A stretch of DNA of 64,000 bases from Bacteroidota bacterium (GTDB lineage: Bacteria; Bacteroidota; Bacteroidia; UKL13-3), in contig JAZKEF010000011.1 of NCBI GenBank assembly GCA_040387195.1, positions 172,077 to 236,076 on the forward strand, written 5' to 3'. The notes below the pieces were generated by a model. It made no database searches, was not told the DNA's origin, and saw only the letters and a list, made by a program, of their open reading frames with translations. Made by a program: the position numbers and the translations under genes. Position 1 is the first letter of the stretch, and each line of letters begins with the position of its first letter. This document shows, piece by piece, positions 11,459 through 38,297 of the stretch.

Positions 11459-11461
11459 CCA

Positions 11462-11908
11462 TTATTCTACTTTGGTCCACACCTCTGTACGGCCGATCAT
11501 TGAAATACCCACGTAGCCGCGCACTTCCATTGTATGCATATTGGTCATTGATAGTTTGCAACTGTACGTTTTTCCATTGTTGGGGTCATATACTGTTCCT
11601 TTTTCCCAAAGGTTCTCAAGATTATTGTATTCGAAACTTTTGAGCAGCAATAATCCCATTACATGTTTGCTACGTTGTTGCTCATCACGGTTGTTAATGT
11701 CGGTTTTAGGTCTTCCATCTGCATCATTCGGGTTTTTGAGCCAAGATATTTTTCCATAATAGTAATTGCCGGTTTTAAAAATGCTGATACGGGCCTCCTT
11801 GTTACTTGTTTCCCATATTCCCACAATATCGTCTCCGCCAATATGTGGAGCGGCAATTGCAAGCATACTCATCATGAGTATGATGACCATCATTTTTGTT
11901 GCGTGCAT
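11462..11908 (-). CDS. DUF2147 secreted protein.
   Basis: Signal peptide. GIWETSNKEARISIFKTGNYYYGKISWLKNP...GTVYDPNNGKTYSCKLSM...MEVRGYVGISMIGRTEVWTKV matches the DUF2147 consensus. Confidence 0.8.
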   Translation of the reverse strand: MHATKMMVIILMMSMLAIAAPHIGGDDIVGIWETSNKEARISIFKTGNYYYGKISWLKNPNDADGRPKTDINNRDEQQRSKHVMGLLLLKSFEYNNLENLWEKGTVYDPNNGKTYSCKLSMTNMHTMEVRGYVGISMIGRTEVWTKVE

Positions 11909-18131: not shown

Positions 18132-19535
18132 TCAATTGCTTTTGTACAATTTTTGGGTGAATTGCTGTGGTGTTGTTATTCCGCTGATGTTTAAAATATA
18201 CAAACCATTTGTTAAATCGGATAGAAGCTGCGTTTGATTGTTTGATACGGTAGATTGTTTCATCAGCTTGCCTTTCATATTATAAATACTGAGCAGGAAA
18301 TCGCCTTCAGGTAATTGTAACGTGATGCACTCTGTTGCCGGATTTGGATATACCGATATGCCTGCAGAAGCATAAGTTTGTCCTAAACCTGTTGTTAAGG
18401 GAATGAGTGTTAAATTTCCATTGGCATCAAATGGATTCGACCAGCGAGCATTGGTGTAAATATCTGTTCCACTTAGGGTTCTTAAAAAGGCAATCAAAGC
18501 ATTTTTTTGATCAGTTGTCAGGTTTAGACTTTGTCCTTGTCCGCCCGGTCTTAGCAGTTTAGGGTCAAGATTGGTGTTTAAGGGAATGGCCGGGATGTTA
18601 TTGTAATGGTTAATTACCTGTAACAAACTTTTAACTTTTCCATTGTGCATAAACGGACCATTGGGAATTCCGTTTGTATTCACCACATCACGCAAGGATG
18701 GTGAACGTGTATTGGTTAAATCAAAAACAGTTGTATCCGTTGCATCTTCAATAATTCCATTGTTAAGTGTGTTCGGAACAATATCAAATTCGGGAGCACT
18801 GTGGCATCCATTGCAACCGGCTCCTCCGTTTCTTGCGGCAGGAGCAGACATAAATAAAATTTTACCTTCATTCTCCTCGGTTGTAAAGTTTGGGAAATCA
18901 ATATTATCACTGGATACCTGTGCACGGCCCGCATCGTATTTCGAGTCGTACGACTGTATGCTGCGGATGAATTGAGCGAGGGCATTCTGTATTTTGGTTT
19001 CGGTAATTTCGGTGCTGCCATATACAAACTGAAACAGCTGTGGGTAATACGAAATGGTTTGCATTTTGCGAATAAGTGAATCCAGACCAGGGTCACCGTT
19101 GGTATTGCTAAAGCCCATTTCTACGTGGTTTTGGATGGGTTGTGTGGTTTGATTTTCCAAACTTGTTGCTCTTTCATCCCAAAAGAATTTTGTTTCATTG
19201 CCAAACCGGGCATTCACCAATCGCATCGAATGCCGGCCGGTTAAGCCTCCGTTGAAACCAACACTGAGGGTGGCTGTATCGCCAAACGCAAACTGCTGTT
19301 GGTGACAGCTTCCGCAGGCAATGGTATTGTTTACCGAAAGTTGTTTGTCATAAAACAATACCCGCCCCAGTGTTGCACCTTTATCGCTAATTCGGTTATT
19401 GCCGGGTGTATTGTTTTTGGTAATATATGCCGGGTGGGTTTGAGATCCATATGCTATAAGGTTGTTTAAATCAATAGTTGCTGCTGTGAGAACCAACAGT
19501 ACTAATGTAGCTAAAATGAGTGGTACTTTTTTCAT
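18132..19535 (-). CDS. Di-haem cytochrome c peroxidase (CCP/MauG family) fused to a type A T9SS C-terminal sorting domain.
   Basis: Two CxxCH motifs (CGSCHQQQFAFGD and CNGCHSAPEFD). CTD ...VYPNPATECITLQLPEGDFLLSIYNMKGKLMKQ...LYILNISGITTPQQFTQKLYKSN. Start trimmed to the internal Met (MKKVPLILATLVLLVL signal peptide), because the track ORF carries a 51-aa N-extension. Confidence 0.8.
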   Translation of the reverse strand: MKKVPLILATLVLLVLTAATIDLNNLIAYGSQTHPAYITKNNTPGNNRISDKGATLGRVLFYDKQLSVNNTIACGSCHQQQFAFGDTATLSVGFNGGLTGRHSMRLVNARFGNETKFFWDERATSLENQTTQPIQNHVEMGFSNTNGDPGLDSLIRKMQTISYYPQLFQFVYGSTEITETKIQNALAQFIRSIQSYDSKYDAGRAQVSSDNIDFPNFTTEENEGKILFMSAPAARNGGAGCNGCHSAPEFDIVPNTLNNGIIEDATDTTVFDLTNTRSPSLRDVVNTNGIPNGPFMHNGKVKSLLQVINHYNNIPAIPLNTNLDPKLLRPGGQGQSLNLTTDQKNALIAFLRTLSGTDIYTNARWSNPFDANGNLTLIPLTTGLGQTYASAGISVYPNPATECITLQLPEGDFLLSIYNMKGKLMKQSTVSNNQTQLLSDLTNGLYILNISGITTPQQFTQKLYKSN

Positions 19536-19686
19536 GGCTAGAGTCGTTTGCTTTTGTGTATTAGAAGTGCTTTTGGGTGAAAACCTTCGTAATGGAGTTA
19601 AATATTTTTTTAGATAACAGATGCTCAGTGCTTTAAAAGAGCGTGTGGCAACAAATCCCTCCGGGCTAAATGCTATCTTCGCGCCC

Positions 19687-21585
19687 ATGAATTATTTGTC
19701 GGTTGAAGGCCTTACTAAGAACTACGGAGAGAAAAACTTATTTAAAAATATAAACTTTGGATTAAGCAAAGGAGAGAAGGTAGCACTAATTGCCAATAAT
19801 GGTGTAGGTAAATCCACCTTACTCAAAATAATAGGAGGAAAAGATACGCCCGATTCAGGCAAAGTATCGTTGCGCAATGGCATCCGGGTTGGTTTTCTGG
19901 ATCAGGAACCTGATTTCGGCATGCACCTTACCATTAACGATTTGATTAATGGAGCCAATTCTAAATTATTATCTGCTATACGTGAATACGAAGATTCTCT
20001 GGAAGCTCAGGGTATTGACTATAACGATGAAACCCACCGCAGGTTTGAGTTGGCCAGCAATAAAATGGAAGAGTTGCAGGCATGGGATTATGAGCGCAGA
20101 CTCACAACCATTCTATCAAAGTTTAATATTACCGATTTAACCCAGCATATTGATTCGTTGAGCGGAGGACAAAAAAAGCGCCTTGCGCTTGCCTTGGTTT
20201 TACTGGATAATCCGGAGTTGATTATCCTGGATGAGCCAACCAATCATTTGGATCTGGATATGATTGAGTGGTTGGAAGAATACCTTACCCAAAGCACACT
20301 AACACTGCTGATGGTTACCCACGACAGGTATTTTCTGGATCGTGTTTGCAATAAAATATTGGAGTTAACGGATGGTAAACTGTTTCGCCATGAAGGGAAT
20401 TATTCCTATTTTCTGGAGAAACGTGATGAGCGTGAAGAGGTATATGATGTGGAGGTTGGCAAGGCCAAACAACTGATGAAAAAAGAGTTGGAGTGGATGC
20501 GCAGAATGCCCAAAGCACGTGGAACAAAATCGAAGGCCCGTATTGATTCGTTTTACGAGATACAGGATAAAGCCAATAGCCGCAGAAAAAAACAGGAACT
20601 CAAACTGGAGGTACGCATGAGCAGGATTGGTGGAAACATTCTCGACCTGAAAAAGGTGCGCAAGAGTTATGGCGACAAATTGATTTTGGATGGATTTGAG
20701 TATTCGTTTAAAAAGGGTGAACGTATTGGTATTATTGGTAAAAATGGAGTGGGTAAAACAAGCTTCCTCAATATTATTACCCAAATTGAACAACCCGATA
20801 GTGGGAAAATAAATGTGGGAGATACAATTGTGTATGGTTATTACTCGCAAAAAGGAATTGTATTAAAAGAAGATCAAAGGGTAATTGATGTGGTAAAAGA
20901 TATTGCCGATGTGATCATCCTTGGTGATGGAACGGCACTACCGGCATCACAATTTTTAACGCACTTTTTGTTTCCACCCGAAATGCAGTATACCTATGTT
21001 TCGAAGTTAAGTGGGGGTGAACGCAGGCGCTTGTATTTATTAACAGTGCTGATTAAAAATCCTAATTTTTTAATTTTGGATGAGCCTACCAATGACCTCG
21101 ATTTATTAACCCTGAATAAACTTGAAGATTTTCTGCAGGCCTTTGGTGGATGTTTACTGGTAGTGAGCCACGACAGGTATTTTATGGATAAGCTGGTTGA
21201 TCACTTGTTTGTGTTTGAGGGAGATGGAAAAGTACGTGATTACAATGGAACTTACAGCGAATACCGTGAGGAAGAAGATGAAAAGGAGATGCTTGCCGAA
21301 GCTGAACGCAAAGCGTTGTTACAAAAGAAAGTTGAACCGGTAAAACCGAAACCTGCTGTAGAGGCCAGACGTAAAATGACGTTTAAGGAAAAACAGGAAT
21401 TTGAAAACCTGGAAAAAGAAATAGCCGACCTGGAGGCTGAAAAGGCTGAATTGGAAAAAAGTTTATCAGATGTTTCATTAGGACATGAAGAGATTGTGAA
21501 ACTTGCAGGTCGCTTTGAAAAAGTGAAAGAGGGCATTGATGAAAAATCACTGAGATGGATTGAGTTGAGTGAGCTTGAAGGGTAG
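19687..21585 (+). CDS. ABC-F family ATPase (Uup/YbiT/EttA-like), with no membrane domain.
   Basis: Two ABC cassettes with Walker A GNNGVGKST/GKNGVGKTS and signatures LSGGQKKRLAL/LSGGERRRLYL. C-terminal K/E-rich coiled coil. Start placed at MNYLSVEGL; the track ORF begins 22 codons earlier. Confidence 0.85.
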   Translation: MNYLSVEGLTKNYGEKNLFKNINFGLSKGEKVALIANNGVGKSTLLKIIGGKDTPDSGKVSLRNGIRVGFLDQEPDFGMHLTINDLINGANSKLLSAIREYEDSLEAQGIDYNDETHRRFELASNKMEELQAWDYERRLTTILSKFNITDLTQHIDSLSGGQKKRLALALVLLDNPELIILDEPTNHLDLDMIEWLEEYLTQSTLTLLMVTHDRYFLDRVCNKILELTDGKLFRHEGNYSYFLEKRDEREEVYDVEVGKAKQLMKKELEWMRRMPKARGTKSKARIDSFYEIQDKANSRRKKQELKLEVRMSRIGGNILDLKKVRKSYGDKLILDGFEYSFKKGERIGIIGKNGVGKTSFLNIITQIEQPDSGKINVGDTIVYGYYSQKGIVLKEDQRVIDVVKDIADVIILGDGTALPASQFLTHFLFPPEMQYTYVSKLSGGERRRLYLLTVLIKNPNFLILDEPTNDLDLLTLNKLEDFLQAFGGCLLVVSHDRYFMDKLVDHLFVFEGDGKVRDYNGTYSEYREEEDEKEMLAEAERKALLQKKVEPVKPKPAVEARRKMTFKEKQEFENLEKEIADLEAEKAELEKSLSDVSLGHEEIVKLAGRFEKVKEGIDEKSLRWIELSELEG

Positions 21586-23880: not shown

Positions 23881-26800
23881 CTATTGTTCAAATTCAATCA
23901 CGAACTCTGTCCATTGATTGACTTCACTTGTAACCGATATCCGGCCACCCAATGTTTCCAGTTGGGTTTTAACCATAAATAAACCTAAACCTTTACCCTC
24001 TGCATGAAGGTGGAAGCGCTTATACAGGCCGAACAGATTTTCTCCATGTTTTTCAAGGTCAATACCTAAACCATTATCCCTGAATCTAAGCTTCAATCCT
24101 GTAGGAGTTGTTTCTGAACGTATTGATACTTTTAAACCGATTTCGGGTCTGCGGTATTTAATACTGTTGTATATAAGGTTGTAAAAAATGCTGTGGATAT
24201 AAGGTTTTATAGAGTGCATTTCGGCTGCAGCCGAAAAGTCAGATTCAATCAGTATATCCTGATGGGCGATCACATTTTCGATGCTGAGTGTGATATCACG
24301 TAGGATGGTTTTAAATGAAACCAGCTCTTTGTTTTCAAAAACCATGTTACGTACCTGCAGTATTTCATTCATATCCATAATTACCTCATCGAGTTTTTGG
24401 GCGGCCGTTAACAATGCATCCATCACTTCAGGTAAATCCTTGGCATCAATGTATTCGAGCTTTACCAGCTCGCACAAGCCAAGTATATTGGCAACAGGGG
24501 CTCTTAGGTTATGGGAAACGATATATGAAAATTGGTCAATGTTTTTATTGCGCTCAGTGAGATCTTGGGTTACTTTTTCGCGCTCCTGTTCCACCAGTTT
24601 TCGTTCGGTTATATTCTCGTACGATACCACAATCATTTCTTCCCCGCTTTTAAATTTCACCACGTTCATGGCATACCAATAAGATTCTTTCATTCCCTCA
24701 AGAGGGTATTCAAGGTAAAACAAGGGGATCACTCCACTTAAAACATCCTTCATTCCCTGCAACACGGTTGTGGCTATTTTATCACCGCTGTCGATTGCTT
24801 TTTTACAAACATCAAAGTAATTGGTGCCGGTTGCGGTGCGAGCCAGTGTTGTTTCGCCATGTTCCAATGCAAAATTATTCCACGCATGATTGGATTCAAT
24901 TATTTCACCGTTGTGGTTTAATACAGCAATGTGTGAACTTAATGAACGCAGAATTCCTTTGTTGAAAGCTTCACTGGCTGCAAGTTTAATTTCAGCTTTT
25001 TTGCGTTGGTCAATATCCTGAAAACTTCCAAGTAGTTTGATACACTTACCATCTTTAAATTCGGCCTCACCAATGGTTCGAACCCACCGTTCATTATTTT
25101 TGAGTGTAATAATAGGATACTCCTCATCCCATGATTGGCCTGTTTCGAGAGCTGCCGTAATTTTCTCCATCATTTTTACCCTGGAGTCCCCGGCTTTATA
25201 AAATTGCAGTCGCGATTCAAGAGTAGGTGTGTAGTTTGGCTCTGCTTCAAATATTTCCTTTGTGATATCGCTCCAATACATTGTTTCTTTAATAATATCC
25301 ACTTCCCATCCACCAATCCTGGCAAGCGAGTTGGCCTTAATAATAAGCTCTTCCAACCTTCTTCTTTGGGTAAGGTCAATGCCCACACCAATCAAATAAT
25401 CAATGTTGTTAAAACGAATACGATGACCGTTAAAATAGTAAGGAATCCTTTTTTTATCTTTGGTGAAAAAATGTGCTTCCACATCGGAATGTCCCTCTTC
25501 AAAAACCCGGTCAATTTTTTCTTGCAGGAGTTTCTGTTCATCGATATCAAAAAAATCAAGCGGTTTCATGTGCTGTACCTCTTCTGACGCGTAACCTGAA
25601 ACCGATTCAAAGTTCTTGTTCCACCTCAGGAATTCGCCATTACGGTTATACAAATAAAATACTCCGGGCAAGCTGTTGATAATGGATTCTGATAATGTTT
25701 TTTCGATAAGTATCCGCTGTTCTGCTTTTTTATGCAGGCTTATGTCCCGGTAAAATATGGTGATACCATCCAGTGAAGGATAAACCTTTACAGAGAACCA
25801 GGTATCGAGAGGAGCATAATAGTCTTCAAATTCAACCGGCTTATTCGTGTTCATCGCCTCGTGGTACTTATCCCAAAAGATGGTTTGTTTAAGCCCCGGG
25901 TGAACCTCCCAGATTATTTTCCCTACAGTAGCATCCCGTCCTTGCGGATGCTGCAATAATGCTACATCGTTTAAATAAGTGTAACGCCAATTACGGTCGA
26001 GCGAAACAACAGCATCGCTCACTCTTGCAAGGGTTGTGGTAATCTGGTGTTCGGCTGAAATAATTTGTTCGGCCTTTTCCTTTACCAGTTTGTCGAGAAT
26101 GGTAGGTTGTGTAGCCATAAACCAGCAAAACAATCCTGCAATGCAGGCAAAGACGAATCCTAAAAGGGAGAGGGGGGTTACACTCAGTAAGGTACTTTGC
26201 TTTTTAAGTTTTACATAAATGGTCCAATCTCCGTCAGGTATATGAACCGAAACTGTTTCATCCGGTGATAAATGGATTTCGTTAGGCAGGAAGAATTCCG
26301 GTTGGTTCGTGTTCGGATTTATCTTTGATACCTGATAAATAAAACGGCTCTTATTGGTTGAGTCTATTTCAATGGCTTTAAAAAGGGTTGAAATCCTTAC
26401 CACCACACAGGAAAATCCCCAGAACTTATGGTCGATAAATATAGGAAGTCGGCCTACTATACCAACCCCACCTTGCTTTAGGTTGATGGGGCCTGCAAAA
26501 AATAATTCTTCCTTTTCGATGGCTGTCAGAGCCTCTTTATTTCGGGTGGGATCAGCAAGGACATCATAACCAATCACCGCCTCATTTCCTTTCAATGGAT
26601 ATACATGGGTAATAACCCCTTTTTGATTAAGCTGAATAACGTCAATGTTTTTGTTACTGCTTAAAATTGTTTGGGCAATATTGTCGAAATCGGTTGGGAT
26701 GCCATATTTTCTAACAATAAAGGCCAGGGTTTGGGTTGCAGCCAGGTTATTGCTCAATACAACCTGGAGCCGGTCTTTAATGGAATGAAGTTCTTTAATG

Positions 26801-26940
26801 GTTTCCTTTTGTTCGGATTTACGGGTAATTAAGTAATCCTGAAACACCAGGTATTGAGTTAAACTAGCCACAATGATAAACACAGCAAAGCCAAACAGAA
26901 AAGGCCGTTTAATATGCAAGATGCTGGTAAAACGTTTCAT
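23881..26940 (-). CDS. Multi-sensor histidine kinase with a periplasmic CHASE-like domain, TM segment, about 4 PAS/PAC domains, HisKA and HATPase_c. No receiver domain.
   Basis: H-box FSYIVSHNLRAPVANILG, G-boxes DNGLGID...GKGLGL, and several PAS signatures. About 270 aa of periplasmic sequence lie between TM1 and TM2. Confidence 0.8.
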   Translation of the reverse strand: MKRFTSILHIKRPFLFGFAVFIIVASLTQYLVFQDYLITRKSEQKETIKELHSIKDRLQVVLSNNLAATQTLAFIVRKYGIPTDFDNIAQTILSSNKNIDVIQLNQKGVITHVYPLKGNEAVIGYDVLADPTRNKEALTAIEKEELFFAGPINLKQGGVGIVGRLPIFIDHKFWGFSCVVVRISTLFKAIEIDSTNKSRFIYQVSKINPNTNQPEFFLPNEIHLSPDETVSVHIPDGDWTIYVKLKKQSTLLSVTPLSLLGFVFACIAGLFCWFMATQPTILDKLVKEKAEQIISAEHQITTTLARVSDAVVSLDRNWRYTYLNDVALLQHPQGRDATVGKIIWEVHPGLKQTIFWDKYHEAMNTNKPVEFEDYYAPLDTWFSVKVYPSLDGITIFYRDISLHKKAEQRILIEKTLSESIINSLPGVFYLYNRNGEFLRWNKNFESVSGYASEEVQHMKPLDFFDIDEQKLLQEKIDRVFEEGHSDVEAHFFTKDKKRIPYYFNGHRIRFNNIDYLIGVGIDLTQRRRLEELIIKANSLARIGGWEVDIIKETMYWSDITKEIFEAEPNYTPTLESRLQFYKAGDSRVKMMEKITAALETGQSWDEEYPIITLKNNERWVRTIGEAEFKDGKCIKLLGSFQDIDQRKKAEIKLAASEAFNKGILRSLSSHIAVLNHNGEIIESNHAWNNFALEHGETTLARTATGTNYFDVCKKAIDSGDKIATTVLQGMKDVLSGVIPLFYLEYPLEGMKESYWYAMNVVKFKSGEEMIVVSYENITERKLVEQEREKVTQDLTERNKNIDQFSYIVSHNLRAPVANILGLCELVKLEYIDAKDLPEVMDALLTAAQKLDEVIMDMNEILQVRNMVFENKELVSFKTILRDITLSIENVIAHQDILIESDFSAAAEMHSIKPYIHSIFYNLIYNSIKYRRPEIGLKVSIRSETTPTGLKLRFRDNGLGIDLEKHGENLFGLYKRFHLHAEGKGLGLFMVKTQLETLGGRISVTSEVNQWTEFVIEFEQ

Positions 26941-28398: not shown

Positions 28399-28670
28399 TG
28401 AACCTTTTTTCGTTACATATGTATTTTTAACATTCACTTGCAACTTAATTTATTAGTATAAAACCACTCAATATCCATGATGTTTAAAGCAGTTAAAATT
28501 AGCGCCATCATCCTCATTATTCTTGTTATCGCCTGATTGTGTTATCTAACAAAGCCATATAACAAGCCTAGGTGGCTGTCGCGGTTGATGAGAACCCAAT
28601 CCTGAAAAGAATAAATGCGTAAACGAATGAAGATATTGCACTATTGAATTGAAAACGATACCTTTACCAT

Positions 28671-29498
28671 ATGTTGAAAAGAACTATATATATCATTGTT
28701 GCCATTACCTTTGGTGTGGTATTGCTCGAATCCTTTATGCTTAAACGTCCGGATGGAACAGTTCCGGGCCATACCGGTTCTCCGGGAGATTCATTGAAAA
28801 ACTGTACGGTTTGCCATGGAGGATTGGCTACCCCAATTGATGGATGGATTACGTCCGATATTCCCGCTTCAGGATATGTACCGGGTGTTACATATACGAT
28901 TACGGCAACGAACACAGAAGCGGAAGGTACCCGGTTTGGTTTTCAGGTTTCACCGCAAAATATACAGGGTGATTTACTGGGAACCATTATAGTTTCGGAT
29001 ACGGTGAAAACTCAATTGGTAGGCAATGGAAAGTATATTACGTACACAAGCAACGGTGTTGATGGTGCCGGTTTTAATACCTGGGTGTTCAAGTGGAAAG
29101 CACCTGTTGGCGGAACCGGAAAAGTAGTGTTCTACGGAGCATTTAATTCCAACTTTAACGGACATAAAGATGGCGATAAAACATTCCTCTCCACATTAAC
29201 GGTGAATGAAGCGGGTACAACCGGTTTACAATCGTTCTCTTCCGATGATACACCTTTTGTATTGTACCCACAACCTGCATCCGAAAGGGTGTTTGTTAAT
29301 ATCGGCACAACCTATTCAGGTAAACCATCCATCCGTTTAATGGACATCAATGGCAAAACGGTATCTGAACTTGTAGCGGATGAAACAGCCAACGGAATAC
29401 TGAGCTTATCGCTTACAGATATTCCGCGGGGAATCTATTTTATGGAGTTGCAGATAGACGGAAAACAGGAAGCTGTGAGAAAGTTGATGGTGAATTAA
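28671..29498 (+). CDS. T9SS type A cargo protein with a single N-terminal CxxCH haem-binding motif and a beta-sandwich body.
   Basis: N-terminal anchor/signal. GHTGSPGDSLKNCTVCHGG. CTD ...LYPQPASERVFVNIGTTYSGKPSIRLMDINGKTV...GIYFMELQIDGKQEAVRKLMVN. Confidence 0.65.
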   Translation: MLKRTIYIIVAITFGVVLLESFMLKRPDGTVPGHTGSPGDSLKNCTVCHGGLATPIDGWITSDIPASGYVPGVTYTITATNTEAEGTRFGFQVSPQNIQGDLLGTIIVSDTVKTQLVGNGKYITYTSNGVDGAGFNTWVFKWKAPVGGTGKVVFYGAFNSNFNGHKDGDKTFLSTLTVNEAGTTGLQSFSSDDTPFVLYPQPASERVFVNIGTTYSGKPSIRLMDINGKTVSELVADETANGILSLSLTDIPRGIYFMELQIDGKQEAVRKLMVN

Positions 29499-29536
29499 CA
29501 CAACCGTATAACATTCAAATCCTAAATCTCACATTC

Positions 29537-29553
29537 TTTATAACTTCTTTATA
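29537..29553 (+). promoter_or_regulatory. Candidate KdpE operator upstream of the kdpD-like kinase. Hexamer direct repeats have 11-bp periodicity: TTTATA-ACTTC-TTTATA.
   Basis: E. coli KdpE binds TTTATA-N5-TTTACA direct repeats. An almost identical box recurs at 31351-31367, in front of kup. Confidence 0.45.
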
Positions 29554-29591
29554 CCCGAATCTTTACCTTCGTTTAGCAGATACATACACCA

Positions 29592-30671
29592 TTGAAACTG
29601 TTGAACACACGCAAATATCCCTTGGCACTGCAGTATGGCATTGGCATAGGTTTGGTGTTGTTTGTAGCAACGGCCTGCTTTTACACAGCTGATTATATCG
29701 GGTACCGGATTGTTGCACTCATATTGCTTATGACCGTTTCGTTAGTGGCAATGTTGTTTGAGATCTTACCGGTATTACTTACTGCAGTGCTGAGTGCGGT
29801 TACCTGGAATTTCTTTTTTATTCCACCCATTTTTACATTCCATATTTCCAATGCCGAGGATGTATTGATGTTTTTACTTTACTTTTCGATTGCTTTGGTG
29901 AATGCGGTATTAACATTTAAGATCCGCAAAGAGGAAAGCAGGGCAAGGGATCAGGAAGAAAAGGAAAACACCATCCGGCTTTACAATACCCTGTTGAATT
30001 CATTGTCGCATGAATTGCGTACACCCATATCAACCATACTGGGAGCTGTAGATACCCTGAAAGAAAACAATGTCCGCTTAACTGCCGTTCAGCAATCGGA
30101 ATTGCTCACCGAAATAGATACGGCAAGTATCCGGCTCAACAGGCAGGTTGAAAACCTCTTGAACATGAGCAGGCTGGAAAGTGGTATGTTAAAACCTAAG
30201 TTTGATTGGTGTGATCTGAATGAATTGATTCACTCGGTGGTGCAAAAAATGGATACCGGAAAATATCATTCAATTGTGTTTGATCCAGCAGAAACATTGC
30301 CGTTAATTAAAACGGATGAAGGCTTGGCAGAACAGATTTTACATAATTTATTGCACAACGCCATTCAATATACCCCCCATCATTCTATTATTACCATCGC
30401 GGCCGTACACCACAATGAAACATTTGTGTTAACGGTTTCGGACAATGGAATGGGTTTTCCCCAAACAGAAATGGCTGCGGCTTTTGATAAGTTTTACCGG
30501 TTACCCAATAGCAAAACGGGTGGTAGCGGATTGGGTTTATCCATTGTGAAGGGTTTTGTTGAAGCCTTAAATGGAACAGTTCGCTTGCAAAACAATCAGA
30601 GTGGTGGAGCCTGTTTTACGGTTGAAATTCCGGTTGAAGCATCATACATTCATAACCTCAAAAATGAATAA
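29592..30671 (+). CDS. kdpD: Sensor histidine kinase KdpD, C-terminal module only (DUF4118 4-TM domain, HisKA, HATPase). It lacks the KdpD N-terminal sensor and Usp domains.
   Basis: WNFFFIPP (E. coli FNFFFTEP) in TM3. H-box LSHELRTPIS. C-terminus ...SGGACFTVEIP (E. coli GGACFRVTLP). TTG start at 29592. Confidence 0.8.
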   Translation: MKLLNTRKYPLALQYGIGIGLVLFVATACFYTADYIGYRIVALILLMTVSLVAMLFEILPVLLTAVLSAVTWNFFFIPPIFTFHISNAEDVLMFLLYFSIALVNAVLTFKIRKEESRARDQEEKENTIRLYNTLLNSLSHELRTPISTILGAVDTLKENNVRLTAVQQSELLTEIDTASIRLNRQVENLLNMSRLESGMLKPKFDWCDLNELIHSVVQKMDTGKYHSIVFDPAETLPLIKTDEGLAEQILHNLLHNAIQYTPHHSIITIAAVHHNETFVLTVSDNGMGFPQTEMAAAFDKFYRLPNSKTGGSGLGLSIVKGFVEALNGTVRLQNNQSGGACFTVEIPVEASYIHNLKNE

Positions 30672-31341
30672 GGCCGAAATATTAATTATTGATGACGAGC
30701 CGCAAATCAGAAAGTTGCTCGAAATAACGCTGGAAAGCCATGATTATAAAGTGTGGCAATCCGAAAGCGGAAAGGAAGGCATCGTTATGGCTGCCAATCA
30801 TCCTCCGGAATTGATTTTGCTCGACATTGGCTTACCCGATAAAAGTGGACATGAGGTACTGAAAGAACTGCGTACCTGGTACAACAAATCCATTATCATC
30901 TTATCTGTGCTCAATAATGAGTCTGATATTGTAACGGCACTGGATAGTGGTGCCACCGATTATCTTACCAAACCTTTCAGATCGGCTGAATTGCTGGCAC
31001 GCATCCGTGCAGCCATCCGCAGGAACCAAACACCCAACAATGGCACAAGCATTGTATGCGGTGAATTGCTGATTGAGTTAACAGCACGTATAGTTAAAAA
31101 GAATAATGAAGTGATTAAACTCACCAATACAGAATTTAACCTGATTTCCCTCTTTGCGCAAAACGAAGGCAGGGTATTGACGCATCAGTTTATCCTTCGC
31201 GAAATATGGGGTGTAGGAGCACAAACTGAAACGCAATATTTACGTGTTTTCGTGGGAACCCTTCGGAAAAAAATTGAAGATGATTCCAATCATCCCAAAC
31301 ATATCATTACCGAAAGTGGGGTAGGGTACCGCTTTACCTGA
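30664..31341 (+). CDS. kdpE: OmpR-family response regulator KdpE.
   Basis: Colinear with E. coli KdpE (LRTWYNKSIIILSVLNNESDIVTALDSGATDYLTKPF versus [37 protein letters not shown]). Winged-helix C-terminus. ATGAATAA overlap with the kdpD stop. Confidence 0.85.
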   Translation: MNKAEILIIDDEPQIRKLLEITLESHDYKVWQSESGKEGIVMAANHPPELILLDIGLPDKSGHEVLKELRTWYNKSIIILSVLNNESDIVTALDSGATDYLTKPFRSAELLARIRAAIRRNQTPNNGTSIVCGELLIELTARIVKKNNEVIKLTNTEFNLISLFAQNEGRVLTHQFILREIWGVGAQTETQYLRVFVGTLRKKIEDDSNHPKHIITESGVGYRFT

Positions 31342-31350
31342 TATCCCATT

Positions 31351-31367
31351 TTTATAATTTCTTTATA
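31351..31367 (+). promoter_or_regulatory. Second candidate KdpE operator, TTTATA-ATTTC-TTTATA. It lies 10 nt after the kdpE stop and about 70 nt upstream of the kup ATG.
   Basis: Same hexamer, spacer and hexamer architecture as 29537-29553. Followed by CAAACCCCG, reminiscent of the CACCCCG that follows the E. coli site. Confidence 0.45.
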
Positions 31368-31436
31368 CAAACCCCGTATAGTTTTATAACCTGCCAATAA
31401 CATCTGTTGCAACTTTGTATCATCAAAAAAGGATGC

Positions 31437-33413
31437 ATGGAAACCAATCACACAGGTGTTAAAAACAAAGTAACAGCGGCATCACTCTTAATTGCACTTG
31501 GAATAATATATGGTGATATCGGAACCAGTCCTCTTTATGTACTGAAGGCAATCATTGGTGACAGGCCCATAAGCGCAATGCTTGTGTATGGTGGCATTTC
31601 CTGTATTTTTTGGACTATTACCTTTCAAACCACTTTCAAATACATTTACCTTACACTTAAAGCTGATAACAATGGCGAAGGAGGTATCTTTTCATTGTAT
31701 GCTCTGGTAAGAAGGTACGGTAAATACCTTGTGATTCCTACTATTCTCGGTGCATCAGCATTATTGGCCGATGGTATCATCACACCTCCGATCTCGGTTT
31801 CTTCGGCAGTTGAAGGCTTAACCAATATCAAAGGGTTGGAACATATTCCTACCATACCTATTGTGATTGCTATTTTATCGGGACTGTTTTTTTTTCAACG
31901 GTTTGGAACCCATAAAGTGGGAACAGTTTTTGGCCCAGCCATGTTGTTGTGGTTTGCCATGCTGGCTATATTGGGCAGCATTCAAATTGTGCAACATCCC
32001 GATATCTTAAAAGCACTCAATCCAACTTATGCCTATCATTTTTTATCAGAATATCCTGGAGGGTTTGTATTACTGGGAGCAGTTTTTTTAGCAACAACCG
32101 GTGCTGAAGCATTATACTCCGATCTGGGTCACTGTGGCCGGAAAAATATCCGCATTACCTGGGGATTGGTGAAAACCTGTTTGTTGCTGAACTACATGGG
32201 GCAGGCAGCCTGGCTTATGAATATGGGGGCAGATCATTTACCTGCCGGACATAATCCGTTTTTTGACATCATGCCGCAATGGTTTTTAATTCCGGGAATT
32301 GCCATTGCCACCTTTGCTGCCATCATTGCTTCGCAGGCATTGATCAGCGGGAGTTACACGCTCATCAACGAAGCCATGAACATGAATTTTTGGCCGCGTG
32401 TTGCAGTTAGACAACCTTCGGAAACCAAAGGACAGATTTATATTCCAAGTGTAAATATCATTCTTTGGATAGGATGTGTACTGATGGTATTGCATTTTGA
32501 AAATTCGTCAAACATGGAAGCGGCTTATGGATTAGCCATTACGCTTACCATGATGGTAACAACATACCTGCTGTTTTATTTTCTGCTGTTTAAACTCAAG
32601 TGGAACAAAGCACTGGTGTACATATTGCTGTTGCTATTTGCCAGCATAGAGGTGTCGTTTTTTATCGCCAACATTCAAAAATTTCCCGAAGGCGGTTACA
32701 TCACCATTGTTATTGCCGGCATCTTCATCTTTATCATGTATTCGGTATACTCCGGACGTAAAATCAGCAACCGTTTTACCAAATTTGTTGATCTCGGACA
32801 ATATGTAAACAGTATTAAGGAATTGAGTGGGGACGATGCAATCGGGAAATTCTCCACACACCTGGTTTACCTTACCAAAGCCAATAACCGCCATGAGATA
32901 GAGGAGAAAATAATCAAATCCATTTTGGCGAAAACCCCCAAACGTGCAGATGTTTATTGGTTTGTTCATATCCACCGTACCAATGAACCTTACACACTTT
33001 CTTATGATGTGTCGGAACTGGTGGAAGATAAAATCATCAAGGTAAATGTGAACGTGGGATTCAGGGTACAGCCGAGAACAGAATTATACTTCAAAAAAAT
33101 TGTGCATGAGTTGATGGTTAACCAGGAGTTGAACCTGCATGTTCGTCCAGATGGTTCTACCAAATACAATAATGAACCCGACTTTAAATTTGTGGTCATC
33201 GAAAAATTCCTATCTGTAGAAAACGAATTTACCTTAAGGGAAGGGATTTTATTGAACACATTCTTTTGGTTGAAACAAGTGAGTTTAAGTGATGAAAAAG
33301 CGTTTGGGCTTGATAAATGTGATGTAGTGATTGAACATGTTCCACTTGTTTACCAGCCTGTAACATATATTGAACTTAAACGCGAAAATCCTGTTTCTAT
33401 CCGTAATGAATAA
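31437..33413 (+). CDS. kup: Kup/HAK/KT family potassium uptake transporter.
   Basis: IYGDIGTSPLYV signature, about 12 TM helices and a C-terminal cytoplasmic domain. The ATG at 31437 is preferred over the track TTG at 31407. Confidence 0.9.
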   Translation: METNHTGVKNKVTAASLLIALGIIYGDIGTSPLYVLKAIIGDRPISAMLVYGGISCIFWTITFQTTFKYIYLTLKADNNGEGGIFSLYALVRRYGKYLVIPTILGASALLADGIITPPISVSSAVEGLTNIKGLEHIPTIPIVIAILSGLFFFQRFGTHKVGTVFGPAMLLWFAMLAILGSIQIVQHPDILKALNPTYAYHFLSEYPGGFVLLGAVFLATTGAEALYSDLGHCGRKNIRITWGLVKTCLLLNYMGQAAWLMNMGADHLPAGHNPFFDIMPQWFLIPGIAIATFAAIIASQALISGSYTLINEAMNMNFWPRVAVRQPSETKGQIYIPSVNIILWIGCVLMVLHFENSSNMEAAYGLAITLTMMVTTYLLFYFLLFKLKWNKALVYILLLLFASIEVSFFIANIQKFPEGGYITIVIAGIFIFIMYSVYSGRKISNRFTKFVDLGQYVNSIKELSGDDAIGKFSTHLVYLTKANNRHEIEEKIIKSILAKTPKRADVYWFVHIHRTNEPYTLSYDVSELVEDKIIKVNVNVGFRVQPRTELYFKKIVHELMVNQELNLHVRPDGSTKYNNEPDFKFVVIEKFLSVENEFTLREGILLNTFFWLKQVSLSDEKAFGLDKCDVVIEHVPLVYQPVTYIELKRENPVSIRNE

Positions 33414-33524
33414 TGGGATTACCCTATATTTAGATAAAGGCTTTTTTAGGAAGGTAGTCCATTCCTGTATACAAAAAATAACAATTGAGGAGGGAAATAA
33501 TTACCTTCTATTAACAAAAAATAT

Positions 33525-34916
33525 ATGAAACAACTTGTAACAATTGCTTTGGCATTGATAGTGTATGGTGCATCGGCCCAAACTGAATGGCCCTCGGAAA
33601 ACAAACCGAAAGACAGCGTGACCAGTTCGCATGAACCGTTTGGGGGTATTGATATGACCTGGCATAACGGGGGTGACCGTAGGGAGAAAAATATCTGGAC
33701 CATATCTCCCTATTTTACACCCAGTATTTTAGTTGATGTAAATTACACCTACTCATTTCACAATCCAAATGACAATACGGTTGTTGGATCAACAGCACTT
33801 TCCCGCAACAACGAAGTCCAACTTTCGGCATTACATGTTGGAGGCGACTTTCAGTATGAGGGAGCGAGGGCAAGATTTATGACACAGTTTGGAACACGCT
33901 CCATAGTTGTACCACGCAATGATTACAGTGTTTACCGCGGGCAATATCAATTGGCAGATGCTTACCGTTACTTAAGTGAAGCGTATGCGGGATATCATAT
34001 CAATAAGTGGTATGGCATCAATATCGATGCAGGCTTGTTTATGTCTTATATCGGATTGAACTCCTTTTACCAGGCCGAAAACTGGGAATACCAGGCATCC
34101 TTTACTTCCGATAATACTCCCTGGTTTTTCAACGGATTACGCGTTCAACTTTATCCATCCAAATACCTGAAAATAGAACCCTGGATTATCAATGGTTGGC
34201 AGAGTTATGGCAAATTTAACAGCATGCCGGGTTTTGGTGGTAACATCACCTGGGTGCCCAACAGCAACCTGAAACTGCTCACCAATAACTATTATGGATC
34301 AGATGCTGCCGGTATTCCAAATCGCAAAAGATTTCATTCCGACAATAGTTTACTTGTAAGGTATTATAACAATCCCGAAGCATCAGGAATAACCAAAATG
34401 GCTTGCTCCCTAACCGGAGATATAGGTTTCGAAAAGGGGGGAGGAGTGAATGGATTTAGTGATGGAGGAAGCTCAAAAGGCCCTGCACAATATTTTGCAA
34501 GTGCTATGTTTTATAACAGAATCTGGTTTGCCAAAAATAAATTTGCATGGACTGTTGGTGGAGGTATGATGACCAATCCCGGTCGTTACCTGGTATTGTA
34601 TCCAACAGGACAGGCAAGTCCCTTACCCAATCCGCTGAATCCAACACAAACAGCTGGAACATTTCCTTTCAGTGCAAATCCGGGCGACCCGTTTGATGCA
34701 TGGGATTGTTCCACCAATATTGATTTTATGCCTAACCAAAGCATTACTTTCAGGCTTGAATGTGTTTACCGCAATGCATCCGTTCCTTATTTTGCAGGGC
34801 CCAATGGGGTAACATCTCAAACAGGTTATACAACCTCTACACTGGATCCCGCCTGGCGCCCCGATTTGGTCAAATCAGAAACAAGGGTGTTACTGGCAAT
34901 GTTGTTCCGCATGTAA
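33525..34916 (+). CDS. Outer-membrane beta-barrel, putative porin.
   Basis: Signal peptide MKQLVTIALALIVYGASAQ. Alternating aromatic/Gly-rich amphipathic strands throughout. 463 aa. Confidence 0.55.
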   Translation: MKQLVTIALALIVYGASAQTEWPSENKPKDSVTSSHEPFGGIDMTWHNGGDRREKNIWTISPYFTPSILVDVNYTYSFHNPNDNTVVGSTALSRNNEVQLSALHVGGDFQYEGARARFMTQFGTRSIVVPRNDYSVYRGQYQLADAYRYLSEAYAGYHINKWYGINIDAGLFMSYIGLNSFYQAENWEYQASFTSDNTPWFFNGLRVQLYPSKYLKIEPWIINGWQSYGKFNSMPGFGGNITWVPNSNLKLLTNNYYGSDAAGIPNRKRFHSDNSLLVRYYNNPEASGITKMACSLTGDIGFEKGGGVNGFSDGGSSKGPAQYFASAMFYNRIWFAKNKFAWTVGGGMMTNPGRYLVLYPTGQASPLPNPLNPTQTAGTFPFSANPGDPFDAWDCSTNIDFMPNQSITFRLECVYRNASVPYFAGPNGVTSQTGYTTSTLDPAWRPDLVKSETRVLLAMLFRM

Positions 34917-35012
34917 ATTGAAAAAACGAAAATGAAAGTATGCAATAAATGAATCAGTTAGATTTCTCTCCTCCCAATTTGCAATTCTTAAATCACACAT
35001 CTCAAATGGTAT

Positions 35013-36074
35013 TTACTGTTCTTCCTTATAGTAAATCTTATAAAACTTACGTCCGTCTGAATCTTCGCCACGCTCTATGAGTTCAGTGTTTCCGTGGATG
35101 TAGATGTGGAAATTTTTATCGAGTTTTAGTACGCTTTTAAATACGCGGGCCTGTTTTTTTACTGCATTGGTGGAGATATCAAAATTGCCACTCAGCGACA
35201 TATCGGCATCGTGGATCATCTCATCCTTAAACTTGTTGAAGGAGTCAATTACTTTATCATCACCAAAAATAGATTGGGTAAAATCTTTTTCGTTGAAGCG
35301 TTCGTTTTCTTTAAAATAGTCTACCGATTTGTTGAGTAGATCAATTTGATCGGCTTTGTTTACTTCAAACTCCTTATCGAGCTGGGAGGTTACAAATGCT
35401 TTGGTTACGGTAAGGAAATTATTGGTAAAATGGTAACTGTCGGCACAGGCTGTTACTTTGAGGAAATCATCTTTCCAAAACTGTGCATCGGCACCGCGAC
35501 TGGTTTTATCAACGGTACACACCTTAAAGCCACTTTCCTTATTCAGGTTAAATACCAGGCAACCTTTATCGAGCGTATCTATGTTTATTCCTCTTTCAAA
35601 ACCAACCTTATAGTGTTTGCCTTTACGTTCACTTACAATAAACGGGTCTTTTTGCTCCGACTTAAAAATACCTATGGCATCGGCAATTACACCATCTACC
35701 AAACAATGTTCGATATAGGCTACATACAAATCGCCCGATTTAATATTGGGGTGTTGGGTAGCCTCAAATAAATGTTTTGCAATGTTGATGCTGTTAATGT
35801 GAAAGGCTGTAGGGTGTTCGAAAATCTCATTCACGAACTGAAATACCGGATTTAGTTCAGCATTATCGGTACTCGAGGTAAACTCATAAAATACAGGTGC
35901 ACTGAAAGGTTTCAGAAAATAATGATTAAGGGCCTCAATCAAATCCTCATCCTCAATGGCCAAAGGTTCAGTTGTGGCATATAATTGTTCGCCATTATTT
36001 TTATTGCCTACTTCGTGAACGGATACGTGGCTGATGCTGCTGGTTGAAAAATCAATACTCATGTTGGCCGGCAA
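35013..36074 (-). CDS. Nucleoid-associated protein, NdpA/YejK-like (PF04245). Tentative.
   Basis: 353 aa cytoplasmic protein. N-terminal SISHVSVHEVGNK echoes the YejK IALHQL start. Size and charge distribution fit. Assignment is from memory of the family, not a computed alignment. Confidence 0.4.
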   Translation of the reverse strand: MPANMSIDFSTSSISHVSVHEVGNKNNGEQLYATTEPLAIEDEDLIEALNHYFLKPFSAPVFYEFTSSTDNAELNPVFQFVNEIFEHPTAFHINSINIAKHLFEATQHPNIKSGDLYVAYIEHCLVDGVIADAIGIFKSEQKDPFIVSERKGKHYKVGFERGINIDTLDKGCLVFNLNKESGFKVCTVDKTSRGADAQFWKDDFLKVTACADSYHFTNNFLTVTKAFVTSQLDKEFEVNKADQIDLLNKSVDYFKENERFNEKDFTQSIFGDDKVIDSFNKFKDEMIHDADMSLSGNFDISTNAVKKQARVFKSVLKLDKNFHIYIHGNTELIERGEDSDGRKFYKIYYKEEQ

Positions 36075-36229: not shown

Positions 36230-38080
36230 CTATTGTTTAATGATTTTTTGAGTGGATACAACGGTTCCGTTTAACTGAATCGTTGCGAAATAAATACCGG
36301 CTTTGAGTGTCGCCATATCAAGAGAAAGTGTGTTCATTCCCGTTGAGATGTTTGCAGGCAAGTTAACCAATTGTTTTCCTGTAATATCATACAAACCCAC
36401 CAATGCTGTTCCCGATACCTTGCTGTTGAGCATAACCGATGCTTCTGATTGAACAGGATTCGGGAATAATTGAGGTATGGAATTCAATAAACTGTTTTCG
36501 GCAACTCCGGTTGAAGTAGTAGTATCTTCAGTCGCGCTCGAAATACGGTAGTAACGCATCAATTGTCCACGGATTTCACCATTTGCAAAAGAGGTGGTAT
36601 GGATGTTTACATACGTACTGTCATTTCTGCGCATGGCAATTGAAATGCCATTATTGAAAGGAGAGTACTTGTAACTGCCATTGTTGGTAAACGGATCTAA
36701 ATCCAACGCAACACCGCCCGATTCACCTTTTTTACCGTAGTGAATATGTCCGGCAGTTACTGTTCCCTGCAAACCATCAAAGGCAAGCATGGTGTGTAAA
36801 TTGGTGCGGTCTCTGTCAAATGTTGCAATTGCTGTTCCTTGTGCACCACTGTTGGTTGTGGCTTGTGCGCCATTCAGTTCGGCAATAAAACCTTCACGTG
36901 CCAAACGGAATACTTGTCCGCGGATTTCTCCTCCCGGATTGCTATCGGTATGCACTACAAAGTATAAACTGCCTTTTAATAATTCACTGATCAATACAGG
37001 TGTCAACGGACTCACGGCATCGTTTTTTGTCCACATGCCCGTAAGCATATTATTGTTGGGAGTCAATTCCTTTACCACACCACCGCTTTGGTTTGGCTCT
37101 CCATTGTGGAAGTGAGCAGCCGCAGCATTACTTGTTAATCCGGTATACAACACATTGTAACGTAATGTATCCATTGTATTGTTTAACCACAACGTAGATA
37201 CACCATATCCTGTTGAAGGTTTAGCCAATGTTCCACCACCCGCAACAATAGCGGCTGGATTTAACCATGCATCAAAACGTAAGGTTTTGGTTGAGCGCAA
37301 TTGTCCACGAATTTCACCACCGGCAACTGTTGTAGTGTGTAAGTTTAAATAAATACTATCCGACATTAACGCTACCATCAAATCAGGCCAGTTGCTAACG
37401 CTCACACCACCCACCATTGACATACTGTCGGCTTGAATAGTTGGTTCCAGCCCAAGCGCTACACCACCGTTTGCACCCGGTTTACCAAAGTGTAAATGCG
37501 CGGCAGTAAGTTTTCCGGTCATTCCTCTGGCAACTACACGAACGGTTGCTGTATCACCTTTCATTCCAAAATTAATGGCTGCATGTCCGACACCCGGTGA
37601 GCCCGAAGCTGCCTGTGTTCCATCCAGACTGGCTGCATAACCCCAGTCGGTTTCCAGTTTTACAAATCCTAAAATCTCTACCGCAGGATTCATGGTAGTA
37701 TGAACGGCTACATATAAGTTGCCTTCCATAAAATCAGTCATCAATCCTGTTAATTGCGTTCCGGTGATGAACGAACGAACGGTGTTTCCCAATACTTTAC
37801 CGTCAAAATCAATAATCACGTTACCACCGGTACGTTGGTTGTGAATATGGTAACCGGTAAGCGGGCTGCTCATTTTGGCAACGCTGATGGTGAAATACAT
37901 GGTATCGCGTGGTGAGTTCAGCATAAAGGCTGCCACACCATTTCCGGTGGTTGTTAATCCTGCCGGTGGTTGTAATCGGGCAGAGAAAGTAAGTCTGTCG
38001 GCCAAATGGTCGGCTTTGGTGAGTGTAGCTCCTGCAAGTAAGGCAGCTCCCAATACTAAAGATCGTAATGTTGTTTTCAT
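36230..38080 (-). CDS. Secreted protein with four CHRD domains and a type A T9SS C-terminal sorting domain.
   Basis: Four repeats of the CHRD signature (GYHIHNQRTGGNVIIDF, AAHLHFGKPGANGGVALGLEP, AAAHFHNGEPNQSGGVVKEL, AGHIHYGKKGESGGVALDLDP), each followed by ...GxLYxNxHTxxxxxGEIRGQ. CTD ...LFPNPVQSEASVML...GIYFATIQLNGTVVSTQKIIKQ. Start trimmed to MKTTLRSLVLGAALLAGA. Confidence 0.8.
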   Translation of the reverse strand: MKTTLRSLVLGAALLAGATLTKADHLADRLTFSARLQPPAGLTTTGNGVAAFMLNSPRDTMYFTISVAKMSSPLTGYHIHNQRTGGNVIIDFDGKVLGNTVRSFITGTQLTGLMTDFMEGNLYVAVHTTMNPAVEILGFVKLETDWGYAASLDGTQAASGSPGVGHAAINFGMKGDTATVRVVARGMTGKLTAAHLHFGKPGANGGVALGLEPTIQADSMSMVGGVSVSNWPDLMVALMSDSIYLNLHTTTVAGGEIRGQLRSTKTLRFDAWLNPAAIVAGGGTLAKPSTGYGVSTLWLNNTMDTLRYNVLYTGLTSNAAAAHFHNGEPNQSGGVVKELTPNNNMLTGMWTKNDAVSPLTPVLISELLKGSLYFVVHTDSNPGGEIRGQVFRLAREGFIAELNGAQATTNSGAQGTAIATFDRDRTNLHTMLAFDGLQGTVTAGHIHYGKKGESGGVALDLDPFTNNGSYKYSPFNNGISIAMRRNDSTYVNIHTTSFANGEIRGQLMRYYRISSATEDTTTSTGVAENSLLNSIPQLFPNPVQSEASVMLNSKVSGTALVGLYDITGKQLVNLPANISTGMNTLSLDMATLKAGIYFATIQLNGTVVSTQKIIKQ

Positions 38081-38297
38081 GAGTGTTGATATTAATTCGA
38101 AGTCATATACGGAAGAAGGGAGGGTGATGGATTTAGTGGATGCAAAAAAAATCAATACAGGATTCCTGAAACCGGAATGCAGATTCATATTTTTTTATCT
38201 GCACTTGAAAAAATCCTAATACCTTTGAATCCTAATCAAGCATCCACGATTGTGCTTTGAACAGTTGGTATTAAGTATTGTGGATCGAGCATCGAGT

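Follow-up and report, generated by a model that had tools for sequence, protein, structure and literature searches.

The 64,000-nt stretch analysed here (contig JAZKEF010000011.1 of a Bacteroidota bacterium, hereafter the window) carries a small two-component system, the K+ permease gene kup and a porin gene in a row, with one AT-rich TTTATA repeat box ahead of the kinase gene and a nearly identical box between the regulator gene and kup. K+ homeostasis is known mainly from E. coli and Bacillus; there KdpDE controls KdpFABC only, and Kup is treated as constitutive. An earlier reading of the sequence (the original prediction) suggested that the boxes are KdpE operators through which the two-component genes are autoregulated and kup is driven. 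The locus comprises the following features, with box scores taken from the weight matrix described below.

29535..29553, + strand: putative kinase-promoter operator (TC-TTTATA-ACT-TC-TTTATA), with its core box at 29537-29553 = TTTATAACTTCTTTATA; 27.8 bits; predicted at about -39 to -23
29564..29571, + strand: predicted -7 element of the kinase promoter, TACCTTCG, 10 nt past the box and one mismatch from consensus; putative transcription start site near 29576
29592..30671, + strand: minimal KdpD-like sensor histidine kinase, 359 aa; Pfam DUF4118 membrane domain, followed directly by HisKA and HATPase_c
30664..31341, + strand: KdpE-family OmpR/PhoB-type response regulator, 225 aa; Pfam Response_reg and Trans_reg_C
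31351..31367, + strand: putative strong distal operator of the kup promoter, box 1 (TTTATA-ATTTC-TTTATA = TTTATAATTTCTTTATA); 27.0 bits; predicted at about -71 to -55
31383..31399, + strand: putative degenerate proximal operator, box 2 (TTTATA-ACCTG-CCAATA = TTTATAACCTGCCAATA), 32 nt after box 1, start to start
31410..31417, + strand: predicted -7 element of the kup promoter, CAACTTTG, one mismatch from consensus; putative transcription start site near 31422
31437..33413, + strand: kup, K+ uptake permease of the KUP/HAK/KT family, 658 aa; Pfam K_trans 1.8e-154, K_trans_C 8e-16
33525..34916, + strand: BBP2 (OmpL-like) outer-membrane beta-barrel porin with a signal peptide; Pfam BBP2 2.4e-42

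The two strong boxes were found letter for letter where they had been reported, on the + strand as TTTATA-ACTTC-TTTATA at 29537-53 and TTTATA-ATTTC-TTTATA at 31351-67. Their hexamers are identical and their spacers, ACTTC and ATTTC, are one base apart. The kinase-promoter operator is made up of two 8-mers, TCTTTATA, that repeat with an 11-bp period. A distance of 38 nt separates the first box from the kinase TTG start (29592), and the second box is 9 nt from the regulator stop (31339-41) on one side and 69 nt from the in-frame kup ATG at 31437 on the other, close to the original estimates of about 40, 10 and 70 nt. Independently, a repeat finder returned the pair as an 18-nt direct repeat with 17/18 identity. 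The likeness is confined to these 18 nt and stops at the box edges; a longer repeat or mobile element as the origin of both boxes is therefore ruled out.

We searched both strands of the window for further copies and estimated chance from dinucleotide-preserving shuffles (n = 100). TTTATAN5TTTATA has two exact matches in the 64 kb, compared with a shuffle mean of 0.01; none of the 100 shuffles reached two, and allowing one mismatch added no site in the window. On a 19-nt weight matrix derived from 124 orthologous sites, the runner-up to the two boxes scores 10.6 bits, and the maximum over 30 Markov shuffles was 18.3.

Both boxes have the features of a KdpE-type operator, namely two direct TTTA(T/C)A hexamers and a 5-bp AT-rich spacer. 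The footprint of E. coli KdpE at the kdpFABC promoter covers TTTATA-CTTTT-TTTACA, at -72 to -50 (PMC3264566), and we confirmed CATTTTTATACTTTTTTTACACCCC 5' of kdpF in MG1655 (NC_000913). With the reference sequence checked in both sources, the claimed match to the E. coli operator stands: half-sites, spacer and 11-bp periodicity agree, the window boxes agree with it at 13-14 of 17 positions, and the distal kup box is predicted at a nearly equal promoter position.

To place the boxes in a comparative frame, we scanned genomes with the regulator and collected 80 loci (L001-L080) from different species, 1.09 Mb in total, with both strands scanned. Their regulators are 62-84% identical to that of the window and come from the Chitinophagales, Saprospiraceae, Flavobacteriales/Weeksellaceae, Cytophagales and Bacteroidales. 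Cultured carriers among them include Epilithonimonas pallida DSM 18015 (L014), Chryseobacterium sp. ST-37 (L063), Lacihabitans sp. CS3-21 (L013), Taishania pollutisoli CZZ-1 (L037), Polluticaenibacter yanchengensis LY-5 (L057) and, with Trk, Aequorivita echinoideorum JCM 30378 (L072). Clustering of open reading frames (ORFs) recovered four conserved families: the regulator, the mini-kinase (75 loci), Kup (62 loci) and the BBP2 porin (38 loci). All other neighbors vary. Compared with the window proteins, median identity is highest for the regulator (77%), followed by the porin (75%), Kup (70%, 62 loci) and the kinase (63%).

Allowing up to two mismatches to TTTATAN4CTTTATA, a box lies 5' of the kinase gene at 58 of the 72 loci with enough sequence (27 of them exact); the box begins a median of 56 nt ahead of the kinase start. 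Likewise, 71 of 79 loci have a box 3' of the regulator gene, 51 of them exact. Anchored alignments give the consensus tC-TTTATA-wwwTC-TTTATA, and across the five orders and families sampled the box columns hold 1.5-2.0 bits of information, compared with 0.1-0.3 bits in the flanking intergenic sequence. The exact TTTATAN4CTTTATA occurs 79 times in the 1.09 Mb, every time at one of the two expected positions and never elsewhere. Two of the checks named along with the original prediction were a comparison of orthologous loci and a search for restriction of the motif; the first finds the box kept at both positions in most loci, and the second, run on the 64 kb and the 1.09 Mb, finds matches confined to them. 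Side by side with the conserved families, a conserved protein of 197-213 aa that looks secreted and matches no Pfam family lies between kup (or the box) and the porin in some loci (L048:10849-11442, L055:2757-3350 and, in a metagenomic contig, L168 990-1631 in box-oriented coordinates); it is possibly a further component of the module.

The alignments also reveal how the boxes sit in their promoters. The -7 element of Bacteroidota sigma-A promoters is TAnnTTTG, at -12 to -5 (PMC9723704). At kinase promoters, the gap between the box and a [TC]AnnTTT[GA] element is exactly 10 nt in 46 of 58 orthologues, and by the predicted positions the box occupies the place of an absent -33 element. At kup promoters, a conserved CAnTTTTG follows box 1 by 42 nt in 40 loci and by 41 nt in 6 more. 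Box 2 lies between them, offset from box 1 by 32 nt, or three helical turns, and separated from the -7 element by 10 nt, which matches the position of the single box at the kinase promoter. An anchored logo of 62 kup promoters gives box 2 the consensus TTTAta-TTTTA-Cc.ATA, and it is clearer as a direct repeat in kdpF, TrkH and porin promoters (for example CTTACA-AAACC-CTTATA). We infer that box 2 is a second binding site for the regulator. The degenerate second box, the -7 elements and the porin were all missing from the original prediction. The scenario named at the time as its refutation, in which the box would be nothing but the promoter shape of this DNA, fails on this anatomy, as TAnnTTTG is a separate, adjacent element and the box is specific.

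This layout departs from the E. coli KdpE operator in several respects. The Bacteroidota unit is the 8-mer, paired with a -7 element (TAnnTTTG) rather than with -10/-35 elements; transporter promoters add a weaker second box at the predicted -33; a single box at -33 would here drive the regulator's own operon; and the predicted target is kup plus porin, not kdpFABC. The geometry also resembles that of PhoB-dependent (pho-box) promoters, in which 11-bp-periodic direct repeats lie about 10 bp 5' of the downstream element and replace the upstream hexamer (compare PMC3264566). Some of those promoters likewise have two tandem boxes, but their half-site is TGTCA(T/C) instead of TTTA(T/C)A, and signal and sigma factor or promoter type differ as well.

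The protein most likely to read the boxes is encoded between them. Its top NCBIfam match is KdpE at 219.6 bits, which does not pass the equivalog cut-off of 325, and it is 41% identical to E. coli KdpE and 58-59% identical to operon-linked KdpE of Bacteroidales. Its LDxGLPD motif aligns with the corresponding segment of E. coli KdpE, and we take the Asp of this motif to be the D52 phospho-acceptor. The best PDB match is E. coli KdpE (4KNY, 2.8e-57), with MtrA as the next family at 1.7e-36. DNA binding by E. coli KdpE requires R193, which is KdpE-specific, together with R200 and T215 (PMC3264566). Aligned to 4KNY, the window regulator, like E. coli KdpE a protein of the OmpR/PhoB type, retains Y191 and all three of these contact residues (YLRVFVGTLR...IITES, compared with YLRIYMGHLR...FITET). 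I194->V and T217->S are conservative changes, and a T replaces H198. The recognition helix (QYLRVF..LRKK) is nearly identical to that of operon-linked Bacteroidales KdpE. The regulator and its kinase are not beside kdpFABC in the window, where their neighbors are kup and the porin gene. Across orders, the regulator has a median pairwise identity of 76%, which is unusually high, compared with 61% for the kinase (L001-L080).

The kinase gene had been called kdpD-like; the likeness holds, and the protein is not a full KdpD. Its best NCBIfam match is KdpD (residues 635-884) at 168.6 bits, with the whole-protein cutoff of 1123 not reached. It aligns with residues 430-511 and 630-884 of E. coli KdpD (34% identity in the core) and with residues 402-496 (47%) and 663-884 (49%) of full-length Bacteroidales KdpD. 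The four-helix DUF4118 membrane domain (PF13493, 2e-20) and the H-box SHELRTP are conserved. By Pfam and by alignment, the KdpD N-terminal domain (PF02702) and Usp are absent from this 359-aa protein, which begins with DUF4118. GAF is absent too: about 12 residues separate DUF4118 from HisKA, and residues 497-662 of KdpD have no counterpart. Because it aligns only to the membrane-domain and core segments, we read the kinase as a KdpD derivative minus the N-terminal KdpD/Usp part (1-400) and GAF (~497-662). At its 3' end, the kinase gene shares 8 nt with the start of the regulator gene (30664-30671, ATGAATAA), an overlap that suggests translational coupling.

What was lost from the kinase can be related to E. 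coli KdpD, which inactivates KdpB through the serine-kinase activity of its N-terminal domain (PMC11018627). The absence of this domain makes sense because the output of the module has no KdpB to control. The E. coli GAF domain holds a proposed intracellular K+ site, and the membrane domain is the proposed extracellular K+ site (PMC11018627); loss of GAF suggests that K+ is sensed by the membrane domain alone. Split KdpD systems, in which a KdpD/Usp serine kinase is separate from a transmembrane/GAF/DHp-CA kinase (PMC11018627), resemble the window in having a KdpD-derived histidine kinase free of the N-terminal KdpD/Usp part. They differ in that the window kinase also lacks GAF, the module has no partner KdpD/Usp gene, and there is no link to kdpFABC.

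Downstream, kup is best started at ATG 31437, since the mechanical ORF begins at TTG 31407, within the promoter. The protein scores 414.7 bits on the NCBIfam kup model, under the equivalog cut-off of 539.6. The porin has the N-terminus MKQLVTIALALIVYGASAQ, and no solved homologue of it was detectable by sequence. Porins of the module form two groups, one highly conserved (~75-82% identical to that of the window) and one divergent (25-50%). Neither a box nor a terminator was found in the 111-nt gap between kup and the porin gene, which are probably co-transcribed. A scan for terminators between the module genes returned none, and sigma-70 promoter-like matches fell below the shuffle expectation, as expected for Bacteroidota. 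No Rfam family matched in 28500-35200, so a K+ or c-di-AMP riboswitch is not involved there. The 64-kb window contains no kdpA, kdpB, kdpC or trk gene.

A metagenomic match to the box led to kdpFABC operons that carry it as well. The canonical Bacteroidales operons L204 and L205 have the order kdpF-kdpA-kdpB-kdpC-(297 aa)-kdpD(890 aa)-kdpE, and L202 and L203 have kdpFABC operons without linked kdpDE. Upstream of kdpF, all four carry TTTATAAAATCTTTATA, a second box CTTACAAAACCCwTATA and a -7 element CAwTTTTG, the layout of the window kup promoter. Because these operons carry it together with a close KdpE of nearly the same recognition helix, we take the box to be the Bacteroidota KdpE operator. 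Canonical KdpD/KdpE systems, L204 and L205 included, thus share with the window the regulator family (58-59%), the operator and promoter layout, and the kinase DUF4118 and DHp/CA core (47-49%). They differ in that the window kinase lacks the KdpD-N serine-kinase, Usp and GAF domains, and in that the window pair has its own promoter and lies upstream of Kup (elsewhere Trk or KimA) and BBP2 porin instead of downstream of kdpC. As a separate observation, the ~297-aa protein after kdpC in these operons (L204:14402-15295) has no Pfam match, and Paludibacter loci without BBP2 have a relative of it, 30% identical, after kup (L025/L027/L028 ~10775-11743); it may be an alternative outer-membrane partner.

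The genes behind the box vary. TrkH and TrkA replace Kup behind the regulator gene and box at four loci (L053, L071, L072 and L073), and where Kup is missing the porin directly follows the regulator box (L030, L034, L070 and L076). At three Chitinophaga-like loci, a single box lies in the intergenic region from which kup and the kinase gene diverge. We also sampled 120 metagenomic occurrences of the exact 17-mer TTTATAWWWTCTTTATA, 10 of which adjoin K+ genes, as follows.

L097: box at kdpF/kdpA
L123: box at TrkH
L126 and L142: boxes at Kup
L192: one box common to divergent kdpA and kup
L130: box at the mini-kinase
L168: box at the porin
L129:4595-8812: two-box promoter, then a 672-aa KimA homologue (6S3K, 7e-69), then mini-kinase and regulator
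L174 and L181: boxes beside kdpD/kdpA fragments

Four unrelated families of K+ importer therefore sit behind one operator, and this is our main argument that the signal is K+ supply. At L181 the box precedes another APC-family permease, beside the kdpA/kdpD fragments, in DNA of 53% GC, and the operator may thus reach beyond Bacteroidota.

The original prediction also had Kup acting in place of the Kdp ATPase, which the 64 kb do not establish. The kup module and Kdp coexist in at least some relatives, L068 and L192 among them. At L068, 2.4 kb separate the module from kdpF-kdpA-kdpB downstream of it, and kdpFABC there has no box. In this region (L068:10836-16673), kup is followed by a sigma-54-dependent NtrC-type regulator (Sigma54_activat + HTH_8), then by a possible -24/-12 promoter (TGGAACATAATTGGC), by two small ORFs and by kdpF-kdpA-kdpB, with tandem units of about 9 nt (CACTTATCA / CACATTTCA) just 5' of kdpF at L068:12850-12965. 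Kdp seems to be under a different regulator at this locus.

Taken together, the boxes are probably operators of the adjacent KdpE-family regulator, in a K+-uptake regulon derived from KdpDE whose output is Kup and a porin rather than KdpFABC. The proposal that a KdpE operator autoregulates the two-component genes and drives kup is thus strongly supported, on comparative evidence, by an evolutionary footprint in about 80 species, by the specificity of the box, by the kinship of the regulator to KdpE and by the Bacteroidales kdp operons. We further infer binding by the regulator, activation rather than repression, the transcription start sites and K+ as the signal. The proposed mechanism begins with the mini KdpD-like kinase, which would phosphorylate the regulator, presumably when external K+ is scarce. 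A regulator dimer would then bind head-to-tail on the two TCTTTATA repeats, 11 bp apart. At the kinase promoter, a single consensus box would replace the -33 element in the manner of PhoB and give positive autoregulation of the kinase-regulator operon. At the kup promoter, the strong, high-affinity distal box would help to fill the weak proximal box, which would contact RNA polymerase and turn kup on. Read-through from kup would induce the BBP2 porin as well, given that the 111-nt gap holds no box or terminator.

Several observations weigh against this interpretation. The kinase has no GAF domain, so its signal may differ from that of KdpD. A box is not recognizable 5' of the kinase gene at 14 of the 72 loci, so autoregulation is not universal. 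Box 2 of the window is weak (<10 bits) and could, as far as its sequence goes, be a mere degenerate -33 region. In Caulobacter, the motif obtained for KdpE by ChIP-seq is different and unrelated, and kup was not reported as a target; KdpE regulons are therefore not uniform. About 110 of the 120 sampled metagenomic 17-mers are chance occurrences in AT-rich DNA, many inside long ORFs and with no K+ gene beside them, from which it follows that sequence alone defines no site outside the context of the module. We consequently rejected these matches as a regulon census and treat them as informative for the ~10 K+-linked loci only. Finally, the searchable literature holds no description of such a module, that is, a KdpD without GAF and N-terminus, a KdpE-type regulator, a non-Kdp importer and a porin, all behind the KdpE operator in promoters of Bacteroidota type. 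The operator type and the protein families are already known, and it is the conserved combination that appears undescribed.

The alternative that survives best keeps the regulator on the boxes and changes the logic. The regulator might repress, with the box overlapping -33, or the trigger might be osmolarity, Na+/NH4+, pH or cross-phosphorylation. The predicted position of the kinase-promoter box, -39 to -23, would suit activators or repressors, and a sensor without KdpD-N, Usp and GAF lacks one of the two regions that are proposed to sense K+ in E. coli KdpD (PMC11018627). We nevertheless consider this alternative unlikely. No recognizable -33 TTG element accompanies the -7 box, as activator-dependent promoters would have it, and the predicted place of the distal box, about -71 to -55, is a typical activator position that equals the E. 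coli KdpE activation site. Moreover, the kinase keeps the membrane domain proposed to sense extracellular K+, at 47% identity to full-length Bacteroidales KdpD, and all targets are K+ importers, of four different families.

A second alternative assigns the boxes mainly to another protein encoded elsewhere, such as a canonical KdpE linked to kdpFABC-kdpD, and gives the adjacent regulator another target. Canonical Bacteroidales KdpE operons do use an identical operator, which would be open to any KdpE paralogue that the cell has, and the genome beyond the 64-kb window is unseen. But in about 80 species the box accompanies the regulator-kinase pair regardless of the genes around them, and it is located at the pair's own promoter. 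The recognition helix is nearly that of operon-linked KdpE. At L068, no box accompanies the kdpFABC close by, whose partner is a sigma-54 regulator. We therefore judge this reading very improbable. That the boxes are no regulator sites at all and reflect a generic AT-rich, UP-like promoter shape or a chance repeat is effectively refuted: their sequence is AT-rich and the exact 17-mer does arise by chance in metagenomic DNA, often in long ORFs, yet the window has two matches where 0.01 are expected, no other promoter in the 64 kb or the 1.09 Mb of related loci has a box, the box is distinct from the -7 element and at a fixed distance to it, and it is conserved while its flanks are not.

If the boxes are operators of the adjacent regulator, the Bacteroidota arrangement differs from the E. 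coli and Bacillus paradigms: a KdpE-type regulator and an E. coli-like operator would be wired to Kup (or Trk or KimA) and an outer-membrane porin, under a stripped sensor. Such an arrangement would explain why the KdpB-acting N-terminal serine-kinase domain is dispensable when the output is not KdpFABC. The mini-kinase would be a natural minimal construct for locating the K+-sensing part of KdpD, and the operator and its matrix could be used to predict K+ regulons in a phylum with unusual promoters. The BBP2 porin becomes a candidate outer-membrane K+ channel. A broader proposal, which we advance tentatively and regard as somewhat doubtful, is that Bacteroidota share, across the phylum, a self-contained cassette for K+ scavenging. 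A KdpD cut down to membrane domain and kinase core would suffice for K+ sensing, one KdpE operator would serve as a universal plug-in promoter for the interchangeable inner-membrane importers Kup, TrkHA, KimA and KdpFABC, and a dedicated, co-induced BBP2 would be an outer-membrane K+ entry channel. If true, such an entry channel would be a component unknown in the E. coli and Bacillus paradigms of K+ uptake.

Other genes near the module in the window show no tie to it. A 1019-aa CHASE-PAS-PAS histidine kinase (23881-26940, - strand) lies 2.6 kb upstream; it is unrelated and not a conserved neighbor of the module. Three neighboring proteins have C-terminal sorting domains of the T9SS type, which confirm that the DNA is of Bacteroidota origin, and are unlinked to the K+ module in other species. 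They are a di-haem cytochrome c peroxidase (18132-19688, - strand), a 275-aa protein just 5' of the kinase promoter (28671-29498, + strand) and a CHRD-domain protein (36230-38188, - strand).

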